Assembly: GCA_964627195.1 (NCBI GenBank)
Contig: CAZVJU010000001.1
Location: 9,066-73,065 of the forward strand
From: an uncultured Gammaproteobacteria bacterium
GTDB taxonomy: Bacteria; Patescibacteriota; Microgenomatia; UBA8517
Direction of reading: 5' to 3'
DNA length: 64,000 nt
The notes below the pieces were generated by a model. That model made no database searches. It saw only the letters and a program-made list of their open reading frames with translations, and was not told the DNA's origin. The position numbers and the translations under genes are program-made. Below, piece after piece: positions 23,098 through 46,370 of this stretch (its first letter is position 1; the number at the start of each line of letters is the position of its first letter).

Positions 23098-24240
23098 TCA
23101 CTTGGAAATTTTAGGAAATTTCCAAGCTCGCCAAATAACAACGTTGTACATAAAGTAGTTATAGGGAAGAACAAGAAAAACTATTATAAAAGGTAGTGCG
23201 AGTTGACGGTATTGAGCTCCAAAGAATATATCTGACAATGTTCCAAACACTACTTGAATACCGAGAGCTCCGGCTGAAGTTAAGTTAAACTGTAAGAATT
23301 TTTTGATTAAATTTCCAGATCCGGTAATTTTCTCAGATTTGAATGTCCAGATATTATTGAAGATAAAGTTATTGACAATTGCCAGCTCGGTTGAGGCTCC
23401 CCAGGCCAATGGTCCGGGAAACATCCACTTCGTAAAAAGCCAGAGGGTAGAGGCATTAACAACATACCCTGTAAATCCGACAGTCCCGAATTTTATAAAT
23501 TTGGCTTTATCTTTTATCCCCAAAATAACGGCAACTTTAAACGTTGCAATCATTTCTTTCGTATTAAATTTTGATTTGTCAGTTACTCTCGGTCGAAATT
23601 CCAAAGGCACTTCTTTTACTTTCTTGGCATTTTTTATCGATTGATACAAAAGATCAACTTTGTAGGCGAACCTCTCTTTTTCCATTAAATTGTCTAAGTC
23701 AATCCTATCTAATACTCCCTTTACTTTAGTTAATCTGAAACCGGTTGTTAAATCATGAAGAGAGGGTTTCAGAAGAACCAATCTGATAAACAAGTTTCCT
23801 GCAAAGCTCACAAATTTTCTAAAAAATGCCCATTCTTTGGGTACTGAACCTCCCGGGATATAGCGAGAACCAATAACATATTCAGCACCTTCCAAATATG
23901 CCTCTACCATTGGTTTTACGAATTGAGGCGGGTGCTGACCATCAGCATCCATTTCCATCACAGCATCGGCTCCCAGCTTTTCAATCGCATATTTAAATCC
24001 GACGACATAAGCATTTCCCAGACCTTTTTTGTCTCCCTGCTGAACAATATGAAGATTTTTCCTTTTCTTCATTTCTTCTTCAACTATCTCTGTCATCCCA
24101 TCCGTGGAATAGTTATCGGCAACAAGAAGATGCATATCTGCATTGATTTTGGGAAATACCTCATCAAACAAGGTGTCAATCATTCTTTTGATATTCTCTA
24201 CTTCATTCCAAGCAGCCATAACAATTACAACTTTTTCCAT
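23098..24240 (-). CDS. Polyprenol-monophosphate sugar synthase (DPM1/Ppm1-like GT2) fused to a GtrA-like C-terminal membrane domain
   Basis: Motifs VIVMAAWNEVENI, VADNYSTDG and MEMDADGQHPP in the N-terminal half. The C-terminal half has 4 TM helices starting FIKFGTVGFTGYVVN (GtrA pattern). Confidence 0.85.
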   Translation of the reverse strand: MEKVVIVMAAWNEVENIKRMIDTLFDEVFPKINADMHLLVADNYSTDGMTEIVEEEMKKRKNLHIVQQGDKKGLGNAYVVGFKYAIEKLGADAVMEMDADGQHPPQFVKPMVEAYLEGAEYVIGSRYIPGGSVPKEWAFFRKFVSFAGNLFIRLVLLKPSLHDLTTGFRLTKVKGVLDRIDLDNLMEKERFAYKVDLLYQSIKNAKKVKEVPLEFRPRVTDKSKFNTKEMIATFKVAVILGIKDKAKFIKFGTVGFTGYVVNASTLWLFTKWMFPGPLAWGASTELAIVNNFIFNNIWTFKSEKITGSGNLIKKFLQFNLTSAGALGIQVVFGTLSDIFFGAQYRQLALPFIIVFLVLPYNYFMYNVVIWRAWKFPKISK

Positions 24241-37693: not shown

Positions 37694-37801
37694 AAAACCT
37701 CTTTCAAAACTCACCTTTCAGGTTCGTTTTGAGAGCTCACGCTAGCTTACACTGAGTAGCAGTGCCAAGCTTTGCTTATATGAACTAGTTTTAAAACCAG
37801 T

Positions 37802-38185
37802 TCATAATATTCCAAGTTCATATTTAACTTTTGCAATCACTTCATCTAACTTCCAATCAGTTTTCACTAAATAAGTGTTTACGCCTCTTTCCCGGCTTTC
37901 TCTGATACTGTCTGCTTTGGAAAGATTACTAAGAATAATAACGGGGACCTTCTTACCCCAATCATCTTCACGTAACTTATCAAGCATCGTAATTCCATCC
38001 ATCTCAGGCAAAATTAAATCCAATAAAATAAGATCAGGATGTTCCTGGAGTGCAACTTCTAAACCACTCACGCCGTTAAATGCTACGAGAACCTGAAAGT
38101 CTGAATCTTCCAGCTTCTTTTTTAAGGCTTTAACCGAAAACATCTCGTCTTCAACGATCAAAATTTTATATTTTTTGTCTGACAT
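37802..38185 (-). CDS. Single-domain response regulator (receiver only)
   Basis: Motifs ILIVEDE and ILLDLILPEMDG. It is 127 aa with no output domain. Confidence 0.9.
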   Translation of the reverse strand: MSDKKYKILIVEDEMFSVKALKKKLEDSDFQVLVAFNGVSGLEVALQEHPDLILLDLILPEMDGITMLDKLREDDWGKKVPVIILSNLSKADSIRESRERGVNTYLVKTDWKLDEVIAKVKYELGIL

Positions 38186-41556: not shown

Positions 41557-41617
41557 ACGTTAATATTGCTTTATTATACATTCATAATGATAAGTCAGGA
41601 AACGGAATGTGCGATTT

Positions 41618-41716
41618 TGCCTAATGTGCGGCGATATATCCGAAGTACCGCCACGGTATGCGTCTGGTTTGGATTATATCAAAAACTTGAGACATTTAGG
41701 ATATACCGCAGTTAGG
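41618..41716 (-). other. attC-like site with canonical core / inverse-core heptamers
   Basis: The minus strand reads GCCTAAC-T-GCGGTATATCC ... GGATATATCGCCGC-AC-ATTAGGC, with an inner hairpin TACCG/CGGTA. A further GTTAGGC lies at 41744-41750. Confidence 0.6.
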
Positions 41717-42323: not shown

Positions 42324-42523
42324 TTTAGTTCATGGTTTCATTTTAATATTATTCTTTTCCATAAAATAAATTAGAGTTATTCCTTATTACCCCTCCTTAA
42401 TAATTAAAATCAAATTTTCATCTCTAATCAATGCGCAAAAGCTTGAAATCTCCAACAAGATAAAAATTTATTTCGTATAATGTTTCGGTGTATGGGAAGT
42501 TTGCCTTATTTTTCCCATTAGGA

Positions 42524-43076: not shown

Positions 43077-43264
43077 AGTTCTTATAATACTATAAACAAA
43101 AAATTAAGGCAAATTTGGACGGAAGAAAATAGCACAAGCTTAGTTTTATTCGAACCGTGCCATTTTTCTGTAACCCCATGTACCGTGTTATACGCCCCGA
43201 GCGAAACGAAGTGTAGCGAGAGCGCAGCGTGGTCGAGCGATAACGAGAAGAAATGGAGGCAAAA

Positions 43265-43535: not shown

Positions 43536-43698
43536 ATCTAACGTTTCCGAATATGAGAAGTTTTTGGCCGCTTCCTTACTATATTTTAAGAAAAGAAAAG
43601 GGCAAAAATTTGGGTTGAGAAAAATTTGCATACTTATTAATTTAATTGCGCAAATTTTTTGAACCTCATATTCGGTGTTGTGCGAAATAAGGCTCGGC
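43536..43698 (-). other. attC-like site 2
   Basis: The minus strand reads GCCGAGCCTTATTTCGCACAAC-A-CCGAATATGAG ... CTCATATTCGG-AAAC-G|TTAGAT, with an inner 10-bp hairpin AAAAATTTGC/GCAAATTTTT. Confidence 0.65.
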
Positions 43699-44013: not shown

Positions 44014-44076
44014 ATTATTATCTTGGTTAATTGATTAATATAAAGTTTTCTATTTACTCTAGCCGAGCCTTATTTC

Positions 44077-44195
44077 GCACAACGTTCCAGTATATGCGAT
44101 GTTCCGCTACATCCATATTTTATCAAATTAAAAGTTGTAGTGGAATATGGGAGAGCGAAGTGCAACGAGCGAACCGCATACACTGTGTTAAGAGA
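44077..44195 (-). other. attC-like site 1
   Basis: The minus strand reads TCTCTTAAC-A-CAGTGTATGCGGTTCGC ... GCGGAACATCGCATATACTG-GAAC-G|TTGTGC, an imperfect palindrome with bulges. Confidence 0.65.
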
Positions 44196-44275
44196 CCTGA
44201 AGCAAATCAGTTACATTTTTTAAAACTGATTTGCTGAAAGTGCAACGAGGCAAGCAACTGAAAGGAGCGCAGAGT

Positions 44276-44644: not shown

Positions 44645-44674
44645 TTTGAAACTTTTTCTGACAAAAAATAAATT

Positions 44675-44715
44675 TCTCTTAACTACTGTTTGTACGAATT
44701 GTTGTTCGTATAAAC
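44675..44715. other. attI-like region: an 11-6-11 recombinase-type palindrome plus the first cassette junction
   Basis: GTTTGTACGAA-TTGTTG-TTCGTATAAAC (44688-44715), and on the minus strand G|TTAAGAGA at 44683-44675. Confidence 0.5.
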
Positions 44716-44740
44716 GGTATTATTATGATAAAATAATACC

Positions 44741-45549
44741 ATGTTAATCGAAAAATTATAAGAATACTTGCGAATTGCTGGATACAGTGCAGAAACAATT
44801 AAAACATATACTTTGTGTACCCAAAAAATCTATTCCCGCTTCAAAAAACCGCTTAACCTCATCGCTTCTTCCGAATTCGCTGACTTTTTAGACGAGTTGG
44901 TAAAAAGAGGCAATTCCCCTTATACAATAAACCTATACCATGCTTCTCTCAAACTGGTCATAGAAAAAATTTATGATAAGCCTTTTTATTACAAATTTCC
45001 TTACGCAAAAAGACATAAAAAACTTCCCATTGTACTTTCCAGAAGTGAAATCAACTTGATTTTAAATAAAATTATCAATTCCAAACATAAACTTCTTATA
45101 GCGCTGGCTTATGGAGCCGGATTACGGGTAAGTGAAGCGATAGATCTAAAAGTAAAAGATATCGATCTTCAAGAATTAACCATTCATCTTAAAGATGCAA
45201 AGGGGAAAAAAGACAGGATAACGATCATTCCGGAAAAAATTAGATCTGATCTTCAAAATCTGATTGCGGGAAAGACGGCAAACGGTTACTTTTTGAGAGC
45301 GAACGAGGCGGAAGGCTAACAACAAGAACAGCTCAAAAAGTGTTTACATCTTCGATAAAAAAAGTCGGAATTAAAAAGGATGCAACTTTTCACTCCCTCC
45401 GTCATAGTTTCGCGACACACCTTTTCGAAAATGGAGTCGATATCCGCTATGTGCAAGAACTACTTGGGCATGCTAACATCAGAACAACACAGCTTTATAC
45501 CAAAGTTACAAATCCGAAGCTAAAAAATATAAGAAGTCCACTGCGATGA
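44741..45549 (+). pseudogene. Tyrosine recombinase (Xer/IntI-like) with an in-frame stop and a frameshift
   Basis: - Track ORFs 44768..45319 and 45340..45549 are two halves of one gene.
- After NGYFL the +1 frame continues [17 protein letters not shown]...[11 protein letters not shown]...[16 protein letters not shown], and the shift sits at the T5 run 45290-45294.
- Catalytic residues are present: R (GLRVSE), HxxR, H and Y.
- Upstream in frame, ATG 44741 gives MLIEKL, then TAA at 44759-44761, then EYLRIAGYS. Confidence 0.8.
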
Positions 45550-45668: not shown

Positions 45669-46370
45669 ATGAAAATCGATATCTTAACTCTTTTCCCGAA
45701 CATGTTTCACGGGCCGTTTGATGAAAGTATTGTTAAGCGGGCTCGAGATAAAGGTCTGGTGGATATTACTGTCCATAATTTACGGGATTGGGCAGGGGAC
45801 AAACATAAAACTGTGGATGACAGACCATATGGAGGTGGAGTTGGGATGATTTTAAAAGTTGAAGTATTAGATAAGGCCGTAAGTCAATTAGAAATGAAAG
45901 ATTCGGACACAAAAGTTATACTCTTGGACGCAGGCGGTAAAAAATTTACTCAGAAAGATGCAAAAAGATTATCAAAAAGCGAACACCTGATTCTGATTGC
46001 AGGCCATTATGAAGGAGTAGATTATCGAGTCCATAAAAAAATTGCTGATGAAGTAATGTCAATCGGAGATTACGTTCTAACGGGTGGTGAACTTCCTGCA
46101 ATGGTTATCACTGATTCAATCGTTCGCCTTATTCCCAAAGTCCTAGAAAAATCCGAAGCAACAGTATTTGAAAGCTTTTCTCCAACATCCAACATCCAAC
46201 ATCCAACATCTATCCTTGAATATCCTCAATATACCCGACCTGAAGTTTATAAAGGCTGGAAAGTTCCTAAAATTCTCCTCTCCGGAAATCACAAAGAAAT
46301 TGAAAAATGGAGAAAGGAGCAATCTATTGAGAGGACGAAGAAAGCGCGCCCAGATCTTCCTGGTAGATAG
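45669..46370 (+). CDS. trmD: tRNA (guanine37-N1)-methyltransferase
   Basis: Motifs MKIDILTLFPNMF, DDRPYGGGVGM, IAGHYEGVD, GDYVLTGGELPA, EYPQYTRP and LLSGNH. Confidence 0.95.
   Translation: MKIDILTLFPNMFHGPFDESIVKRARDKGLVDITVHNLRDWAGDKHKTVDDRPYGGGVGMILKVEVLDKAVSQLEMKDSDTKVILLDAGGKKFTQKDAKRLSKSEHLILIAGHYEGVDYRVHKKIADEVMSIGDYVLTGGELPAMVITDSIVRLIPKVLEKSEATVFESFSPTSNIQHPTSILEYPQYTRPEVYKGWKVPKILLSGNHKEIEKWRKEQSIERTKKARPDLPGR
46182..46209 (+). repeat. Heptanucleotide microsatellite (CCAACAT)x4 inside trmD
   Basis: Read directly from the sequence. It encodes PTSNIQHPT, inserted just before the conserved LEYPQYTRP block. Confidence 0.9.

Follow-up and report, generated by a model that had tools for sequence, protein, structure and literature searches.

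What is the role of a 28-bp palindrome that lies between a tyrosine recombinase gene and an array of small open reading frames (ORFs) in a candidate-phyla-radiation (CPR) bacterium? The question is raised by a stretch of 64,000 nt (the window; assembly GCA_964627195.1, contig CAZVJU010000001.1, positions 9,066-73,065) from an uncultured Gammaproteobacteria bacterium, placed by GTDB in Patescibacteriota; Microgenomatia; UBA8517. The 28-mer GTTTGTACGAATTGTTGTTCGTATAAAC consists of two 11-bp arms and a 6-bp spacer (GTTTGTACGAA-TTGTTG-TTCGTATAAAC, window 44688-44715), the arms differing by one mismatch (G/A at arm position 5). Between its end and the recombinase ATG (44741) lie 25 nt, and a 4-nt TACT separates its start from TCTCTTAAC (44675-44683), the complement of GTTAAGAGA. 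The 11-6-11 architecture, the distance to the ATG and the distance to the first cassette junction had all been given correctly in a preliminary description of the locus, where the palindrome was taken both as a dif-type crossover core and as the primary (attI-like) site of the array. The second of these roles was borne out, though the exchange falls outside the palindrome. On balance, the 28-mer is probably the platform-side half of an attI-type site, in an integron-like array that would be served by a Xer/XerA-like recombinase without the extra domain of integron integrases. Conservation of the site, its geometry, the position of the junctions and the sharing of its motif with the cassettes are established. 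The elements of the site are as follows (a vertical stroke marks a junction).

44672-44683, minus strand: cassette-borne R arm (arm 0), ATTTCTCTTAAC; cassette 1 starts here, as G|TTAAGAGAAAT on the minus strand; makes up a dif-like core with the left arm
44684-44687, no strand: spacer TACT, 4 bp; extended by its bordering C and G to the 6-bp centre C-TACT-G
44688-44698, plus strand: left arm (arm 1), GTTTGTACGAA; forms the L box in the attI-like core; similar to the attC L' box TTCGCATA when reverse-complemented (TTCGTACAAAC)
44699-44704, no strand: palindrome spacer TTGTTG, which differs between lineages
44705-44715, plus strand: right arm (arm 2), TTCGTATAAAC; inverted third arm, at about -35 to -25 of the recombinase promoter
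44726-44734, plus strand: extended -10 TGATAAAAT, 10 nt past the palindrome and 6 nt ahead of the ATG; leaderless-type promoter
44741-45549, plus strand: XerA-like ('Cand'-type) tyrosine recombinase gene, about 269 aa, inactivated by an in-frame TAA and a frameshift

Exchange point and arm motif

The point of exchange was located with two related loci of the same metagenome, L117 and L130 (related loci are designated by L and a number). They are 100% identical rightwards from TTAACTAGT, through palindrome, promoter and gene, and their left sides are unrelated. Since the identity breaks at TTAACTAGT, TTAAC or its immediate vicinity is where the crossover falls, 4-9 bp left of the palindrome. 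This position, resolved to the TTAAC region, matches the point where an integron would cut (G|TT). The natural junctions thus speak against the palindrome as a dif-type crossover core with its spacer as the exchange region. In addition, the GTT ends of both arms, which abut the crossover in cassette sites, face outwards in the palindrome.

The arms share their motif with the cassettes. Aligned over 8 lineages, the 3' ends of attC-like sites give aaCTTCGCATAyrCCGAAAC|GTTAnnnGAAAT. Reverse-complementing the left arm yields the L' box TTCGCATA, whose variants TTCAGATA, TTCGGATA and TTCGTATA recur in right arms. The cassette start GTTAnnnGAAAT and the arm GTTTATGCGAAT have the same motif with one base different, and cassette starts are complementary to their own R'' boxes or regions (two inverted-repeat pairs, I1 and I7). 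Because L' boxes and cassette starts carry the arm motif, the attI region appears to be made of three copies of one motif of about 11-12 bp (GTTTATRCGAAT, close to GTTAnnnGAAAT). In cassette orientation it reads L''-like arm, N6, L' arm, ACTA, R', which is an attC-like order with a 6-nt loop and no R''. The earlier proposal that the arms are the recombinase-binding motif is, to judge from this recurrence in L' boxes and cassette starts, the best explanation. The four recurrences of the arm on which it had been based are all present in the sequence, GTTTTATTCGAA lying at 43143-43154 and not at 43152-43163; two of the four are R-type boxes (cassette starts) and not L-type arms. Over the whole window the literal arm (up to 2 mismatches) is weakly enriched, with 43 matches against 29.4 expected.

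A role can be proposed for each arm. Arm 0 would be delivered by the first cassette. Arm 1 would stand head-to-head with arm 0 over C-TACT-G, and the two would form a dif-like 11-6-11 core (44672-44683, TACT, 44688-44698), with strand exchange at TTAA|C (G|TT on the cassette strand), where cassettes would enter and leave. Arm 2 is placed tail-to-tail with arm 1, without a crossover partner, over the -35 to -25 region of the promoter of the recombinase(-trmD) operon. It is probably bound by an extra recombinase monomer, which would aid synapse assembly as DR1/DR2 do in attI1, and a monomer bound there would allow the recombinase to repress its own promoter. We infer, in this scheme, which protein binds the arms, whether single or double strands are exchanged, and the autoregulation.

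Conservation of the site, its promoter and the recombinase

The three-arm arrangement was found in all 9 of the 9 independent lineages of Microgenomates/CPR bacteria that were anchored by protein similarity (recombinases 60-76% identical): xTAAC, 4 nt, an inverted pair of 26-28 bp, and the gene directly downstream. A metagenome scan with the arm pattern GTTTRTRCGA-N8-TCRKATAAAC gave 48 loci. The recombinase gene directly adjoins the palindrome in 25 of these; about 10 further loci have the TAACTAGT flank, and about 12 without the flank look like chance matches. Altogether 28 non-redundant sites align without gaps as ATTTCnnnTAAC-TAGT-GTTTATGCGAA-N6-TTCGTATAAAC, in which the spacer is free. The flank columns (ATTTCnnnTAAC and TAGT) are nearly invariant, though the scan pattern left them unconstrained; the 4-bp spacer is TAGT in most relatives and TACT in the window. 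Within the window the palindrome is single-copy, even when up to 3 mismatches to the degenerate pattern are allowed.

The arms are not equivalent. Their asymmetry is kept in most sites (left ATGCGAA; right ATACGAA, CCGAA or CTGAA) with no compensation between arms, and arm position 7 shows 14 G.T and 6 non-pairs among the 28 sites, likewise uncompensated. Because the asymmetry persists without compensation, the pattern indicates that each arm is recognised sequence-specifically by a protein rather than conserved as a hairpin. A test of pair covariation on the palindrome is largely circular owing to the selection by arm pattern, and L143 is the only informative case. Other CPR lineages (L001, L004 and L005) have, as third arm, a direct repeat at a distance of 35-45 bp; by analogy, such a variable arrangement fits an accessory site like DR1/DR2 of attI1. 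A distant, GC-richer CPR locus, L009, has the same design with its own arm sequence (L''/L' ATATGCGAA/TTCGCATAT, attI arms CTATACGAA/TTCGTATAG). Loci L001-L009 come from a protein-alignment scan of genome contigs and, among the matches listed, are mostly distant relatives (up to 56% identity).

Many contigs (L001-L009, L081, L133, L117) end at the palindrome or a few hundred bp upstream of the recombinase gene, which would be the expected effect on assembly of a population heterogeneous in its first cassettes. One match of the arm pattern, L096 1044-1131, is a nearly perfect palindrome of about 88 bp with arms GTTTATACGA...TCGTATAAAC, without the TAACTAGT flank and without a recombinase.

The right arm also stands in a constant relation to the promoter. 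An extended -10 (TGnTAnnAT) is found exactly 10 nt past the palindrome in 15 of 19 non-redundant recombinase-linked loci, and in 13 of the same 19 it ends 6 nt ahead of the ATG. This fixed spacing argues for a leaderless transcript, with the right arm at about -35 to -25. At L090, L098 and L123 a TTGAYN-17-TAnnnT promoter is present instead, starting 9 nt past the palindrome; the promoter spacers of L098 and L123, and a similar promoter in L141, contain an extra arm-like xxGCGAAT or xxACGAAT. Given the promoter geometry and the arm-like motifs in the displaced promoters, the right arm is probably an accessory and autoregulatory binding site. A comparable suggestion exists for xerS: the authors of that study speculated on the same kind of autoregulation, difSL being proposed as part of the xerS promoter (PMC1914069). 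Two other elements overlap this region in the window. A promoter-like TTAACA-17-AATAAT (44719-44747, minus strand; a possible cassette promoter Pc) with a 10/12 match reads toward the cassettes and is not clearly conserved in relatives. A second palindrome (44714-44742; ACGGTATTATT-ATGATAA-AATAATACCAT, 11-7-11, one mismatch) adjoins the first and covers the -10 and the start codon; it shows no obvious conservation among relatives.

Two lesions disrupt the recombinase gene: codon 7, which in homologues encodes a nearly invariant Gln, has become an in-frame TAA (44759-44761), and a T-run near 45287-45291 contains a -1 frameshift. Since the identical two lesions are found in two independent metagenome contigs of the Joint Genome Institute (L081 and L082), this is a real pseudogene and not an assembly error. 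The repaired protein has its best NCBIfam match in XerA_Arch (NF040815), at 209.2 bits and thus below the cutoff of 220, and matches the integron-integrase model TIGR02249 in two stretches with 192 bits against a cutoff of 265. It aligns full length with archaeal XerA (PDB 4A8E, E 7e-40). With IntI4 (2A3V) the alignment is in two pieces, 18 query residues (177-194) standing opposite 61 IntI4 residues (183-243), and the C-terminal ...RSPL tail aligns. In the alignment to 2A3V and in the match to TIGR02249, the additional domain specific to IntI (the I2 helix region around patch III) is absent from the repaired recombinase. Homologues of 268-270 aa with 60-76% identity are present in Woesebacteria, Beckwithbacteria, CPR3 and other Patescibacteria, a range that fits the 'Cand' subgroup of simple tyrosine recombinases, which has been proposed as Xer-like (10.1101/542381).

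Loss of the gene was seen elsewhere too. Intact three-arm sites without a recombinase gene and with trmD directly next to them occur in L124 (1059-1135), L128 (1179-1233) and L109 (455-555); in L128, trmD begins where the recombinase ATG usually stands. In L127 (oriented 1264-1500) the recombinase is internally deleted, only about 17 first and 17 last codons being left. The integrase seems to have decayed repeatedly while the site was kept, similar to CALIN elements (clusters of attC sites lacking integron integrases). Downstream in the window, the coding sequence of trmD contains, at 46181-46210, 4.3 perfect tandem copies of the 7-nt unit TCCAACA. The repeat unit is not a multiple of 3, so that a change in copy number would shift the frame of an essential gene.

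The cassette array

Left of the site, the window has an array of small ORFs on the minus strand, which code for two unknown membrane proteins, an 83-aa product, a DUF433/DUF5615 toxin-antitoxin pair and a NUDIX protein. Between these ORFs stand sites that have imperfect stems and ends of the form RYYYAAC...GTTRRRY. The attC-like sites were recognised by reading the intergenic regions of five arrays by eye and then with a regular expression for the junction. A scan for AAC...GTT hairpins recovered one attC-like site and several false ones, and Rfam and tRNA scans of the window gave no hits.

44072-44197, minus strand: attC-like site of cassette 1; R'' TCTTAAC (44189-44195), L'' GTATGCGG, L' CGCATATAC (44090-44100), AC|GTTGTGCGAAAT (44072-44083)
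43541-43698, minus strand: attC-like site of cassette 2; R'' GCACAAC, L''/L' stem CCGAATATGAG/CTCATATTCGG, R' GTTAGAT; fold z-scores -3.5 and -4.8
42470-42509, minus strand: attC-like 3' end of the DUF433/DUF5615 cassette, ...CCCATACACCGAAAC|ATTATACGAAAT
41614-41715, minus strand: most distal attC-like site, ending AC|ATTAGGCAAAAT (41614-41625)
44275-44291/44656-44672, 43677-43698/44062-44083, 43252-43265/43517-43530 and 42497-42513/43100-43116: complementary pairs of a cassette 5' end and its R'' side

The site of cassette 1 is 83% identical to an attC-like site in L113. The array probably ends at the AC|ATTAGGCAAAAT of the distal site, which would be the R half that attI originally had; beyond it are backbone genes (DUF7670-like and Cu-oxidase_4) that are syntenic in L084 and L087. 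At the level of pattern, the cassettes are mostly promoter-less and single-gene, and attC-like ends, stems and orientation are as expected for integrons and enriched only on the cassette side. The junction motif AC[GA]TT[AG]NNN[GA]AA[AG]T occurs in 3 copies on the cassette strand of the window array; with its 26-nt 5' context it has 0 matches on both strands of the other 111 kb. Of its matches in 32 related loci, 33 lie on the cassette side in the cassette strand, against 2 in the opposite strand and 2 on the gene side, a density of 0.40/kb versus 0.024 and 0.014/kb elsewhere. The short motif GTTANNNGAAAT and the literal arm have near-chance counts in the window, and only the longer junction motif is array-specific.

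The content of the array is variable within a fixed frame. In Woesebacteria-type contigs the order MacB/ABC/YknX, Cu-oxidase_4, DUF7670, variable block of small ORFs, recombinase, trmD, sortase is conserved, and the ORFs of the variable block differ among syntenic genomes. The neighbours of the toxin-antitoxin cassette are not the same in the window, L083 and L087, its place within the array varies between genomes, and its homology stops at AC|RTTA. It is 84% and 81% similar between genomes, versus 73% and 69% for the recombinase gene.

Further features of the arrays were observed. The 5' end of each cassette is complementary to the region beside its own R'' over 14-28 bp, compared with the R box of about 7 bp found classically; in a circular cassette such complementarity would greatly lengthen the attC stem. 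At cassette 1 the 28-bp repeat is interrupted by a 77-bp insert (44197-44273) that contains a hairpin of its own (GCAAATCAGTT...AACTGATTTGC). In L143 (1114-3769), directly beside the attI-like site towards the cassettes, a gene for an AAA_15/AAA_21 and OLD-like TOPRIM ATPase is followed by one for a UvrD-like helicase; the pair looks like a Gabija-type defence system, and the platform may capture defence genes. The negative GC skew puts the cassette-complementary strand, if this is the recombinogenic 'bottom' strand, on the leading-strand template, the skew being confounded with gene orientation. The same orientation was reported for 25/30 sedentary chromosomal integrons (PMC5371416).

Alternative explanations and known systems

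A caveat applies to the palindrome itself, and several observations weigh against a recombinase-bound attI-type site. The window has 3 palindromes of the 11-6-11 type (up to 1 mismatch); dinucleotide shuffles average 0.96, with at least one in 57 of 100. The palindrome alone is at chance level; it is taken as real because it is kept at orthologous loci. Most of the aligned sites were picked by a pattern that fixes the arms, and conservation of the arms is therefore partly circular. Both arms of L143 have changed in parallel (GGATATGTGA/TCACATATCC), which would also suit a hairpin or another dimeric protein. The palindrome is intact before trmD in the recombinase-less loci L109, L124 and L128; as the site is kept where the gene is gone, autoregulation is not its sole role. 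In the window the neighbouring recombinase is dead, and the site there is at best served in trans, or is a relic. Finally, the enzyme lacks the I2-helix domain, leaving no account of how folded attC-like sites are handled. One study ties acquisition of the I2 helix to the shift from double-strand to single-strand recombination (PMC7790495).

The other two 11-6-11 palindromes of the window, at 23100-23127 (ACTTGGAAATT...) and 37779-37806 (TATGAACTAGT...), are both intergenic and are probably bidirectional terminators with no relation to the recombinase arms.

The site, be it the palindrome, the core of arms 0 and 1, or both, could be the chromosomal dif, with the recombinase as the single housekeeping Xer of CPR and the cassettes as hitch-hikers resembling IMEX (integrative mobile elements exploiting Xer) that would insert at dif in the manner of CTX-type elements. 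Its 28 bp and 11-6-11 architecture, which the arm 0-TACT-arm 1 core fits too, the full-length alignment with XerA, the best match to XerA_Arch, the strong conservation of the recombinase across CPR, and the proposed assignment of 'Cand' enzymes to the Xer-like proteins all speak for this, as do the difSL precedent directly upstream of xerS (PMC1914069) and the survival of the site after loss of the adjacent gene. Yet the crossovers fall outside the palindrome, the XerA model scores below its cutoff, and the gene is dispensable, being a pseudogene in the window and in independent assemblies, deleted in L127 and absent from L109, L124 and L128. GC skew is negative over 1-64000 and long ORFs lie on the minus strand on both sides of 44.7 kb. 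Since neither skew nor gene orientation switches, the site lies inside one replichore, and the window does not present the terminus dif with separate xerC/xerD genes that the preliminary description had named as the contrary case. We regard dif as unlikely for this site, and a classical dif was rejected on GC skew, gene orientation and gene loss in several lineages. What the system has of Xer/dif is arm length and enzyme; a terminus signature was not found.

A purely regulatory role is improbable. The palindrome would then be only an operator for a dimeric non-recombinase regulator of the recombinase-trmD promoter, and only the left arm would resemble cassette boxes. The constant distance to the -10, the dyad symmetry with a free spacer, the parallel change in L143 and the persistence of the palindrome upstream of trmD without a recombinase gene would all suit an operator, but variants of both arms (TTCAGATA, TTCGGATA, TTCGTATA) match variants of the attC L' box, distant lineages have direct repeats of the same motif in place of the inverted arm, and no regulator gene candidate is conserved in the neighbourhood of the examined loci. 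Quite improbable in our estimate is a DNA or RNA hairpin, whether this acted as cruciform, as terminator or, in a single-stranded attI, as its folded L''/L' stem. The palindrome does fold well (-8.9 kcal/mol, z -5.7), is flagged as terminator-like, occupies the position of L''-loop-L' in attC-like sites and has compensatory changes in L143. However, arm position 7 is unpaired or G.T in most sites, L090 and L093 have two central mismatches, the arms are kept in sequence beyond mere pairing, and no plus-strand transcript comes from the left to be terminated. In many classical integrons the integrase promoter is controlled by LexA, and CGAATTGTTGTTCG (44695-44708) has one mismatch to the Cheo-type SOS box CGAAC-N4-GTTCG and overlaps the promoter region. 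We give almost no credence to such a box here, because 0.88 matches per window are expected by chance (at least one in 53 of 100 shuffles), the half-sites are lost in orthologues (CGATGTATGTGTCG in L084, CGATTTAGAGGTCG in L087) where the outer arm bases are conserved instead, and no similar box stands upstream of recA in L083. The candidate LexA box was refuted by this loss of half-sites at orthologous sites.

The attI-type reading can be set beside known systems. In attI1 of class 1 integrons, as here, the site lies between the recombinase gene and the first cassette, gene and cassettes are divergent, the G|TT crossover is in the R box with an inverted L box a few bp off (in attI1 these core sites L/R are also termed S1/S2), and the gene side carries further arms of recombinase type (in attI1 the repeats DR1 and DR2, which IntI1 binds as well; 10.1101/2022.02.06.479319). 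Unlike in attI1, the arms here have a Xer-like length of 11-12 bp in place of 7 bp, the extra arm stands in inverted orientation just 6 bp away from the L box, so as to form the 28-bp palindrome, and on the -35 of the recombinase promoter, and the recombinase is without the IntI-specific domain. The window sites share with integron attC the RYYYAAC...GTTRRRY ends, imperfect L''/L' stems, unequal spacers and single-strand folding, and palindrome plus R' corresponds to L''-loop-L'-R'; the differences are the 6-nt loop and missing R'' of the attI version, and a start/R'' complementarity of 12-28 bp instead of about 7.

Among Xer systems, xerS-difSL of streptococci and lactococci (PMC1914069) also has a single tyrosine recombinase gene with a target of about 30 bp directly upstream, possibly within its own promoter, but difSL is at the terminus and resolves dimers, whereas here cassettes accumulate, the gene is often lost and no terminus signature is seen. 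Archaeal XerA/dif and the 'Cand' subgroup (10.1101/542381) are alike in the best full-length match (XerA) and in taxonomic range (Cand), and archaeal XerA/dif differs from the present system with its sub-cutoff XerA score, its RSPL tail aligning with IntI4 and its cassette arrays in place of a lone dif. Some likeness exists to a further group of elements. In CTX-type IMEX at Vibrio dif1, a Xer-type enzyme acts on a folded single-stranded site with two inverted dif-like halves; integration is beside a constant arm, and in tandem arrays only one target arm is replaced. The folded site with inverted dif-like halves, the constant arm and the replacement of one arm would be common to both. CTX-type elements are phages using XerC/XerD at a true terminus dif, whereas the cassettes described here are promoter-less, carry one gene and have their own conserved hairpin sites.

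Thus, traits of integrons are present: the attI adjoins the recombinase gene, junctions are of the G|TT type, hairpins like those of attC occur, and the arrays vary. The defining IntI domain is missing. What defines an integron is an integrase into which a special domain with the I2 helix has been inserted, and IntegronFinder-type tools require the IntI domain; loci such as these would escape being reported by them as complete integrons. An archaeal integron study had the same requirement (10.1101/2022.02.06.479319). No description of integron-like arrays in CPR/Patescibacteria was found in the literature searched, the coverage of which was incomplete. From its sequence features, the system appears to be an undescribed integron variant. 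More tentatively, the 'Cand'/XerA-like recombinases of CPR/Patescibacteria, assumed to be dimer resolvases, may instead or also be integrases of an undescribed gene-capture system, with no IntI I2 domain, arms of 11-12 bp and an attI like a truncated attC (L''-loop-L'-R'). If this holds, the system would be a living intermediate between Xer/dif and integrons.

For the window, the palindrome would mark the constant border of the array, together with the promoter of a recombinase gene that is now dead, and not be a dif, an SOS box or noise. An ordinary enzyme of Xer type, common among the tiny CPR genomes, heads variable arrays with attC-like hairpins and a conserved three-arm landing site. Should this enzyme run the arrays, they would bear on the origin of integrons from Xer/dif, and CPR bacteria would have a dedicated route for swapping genes, among them the toxin-antitoxin, NUDIX and other small genes of the arrays.

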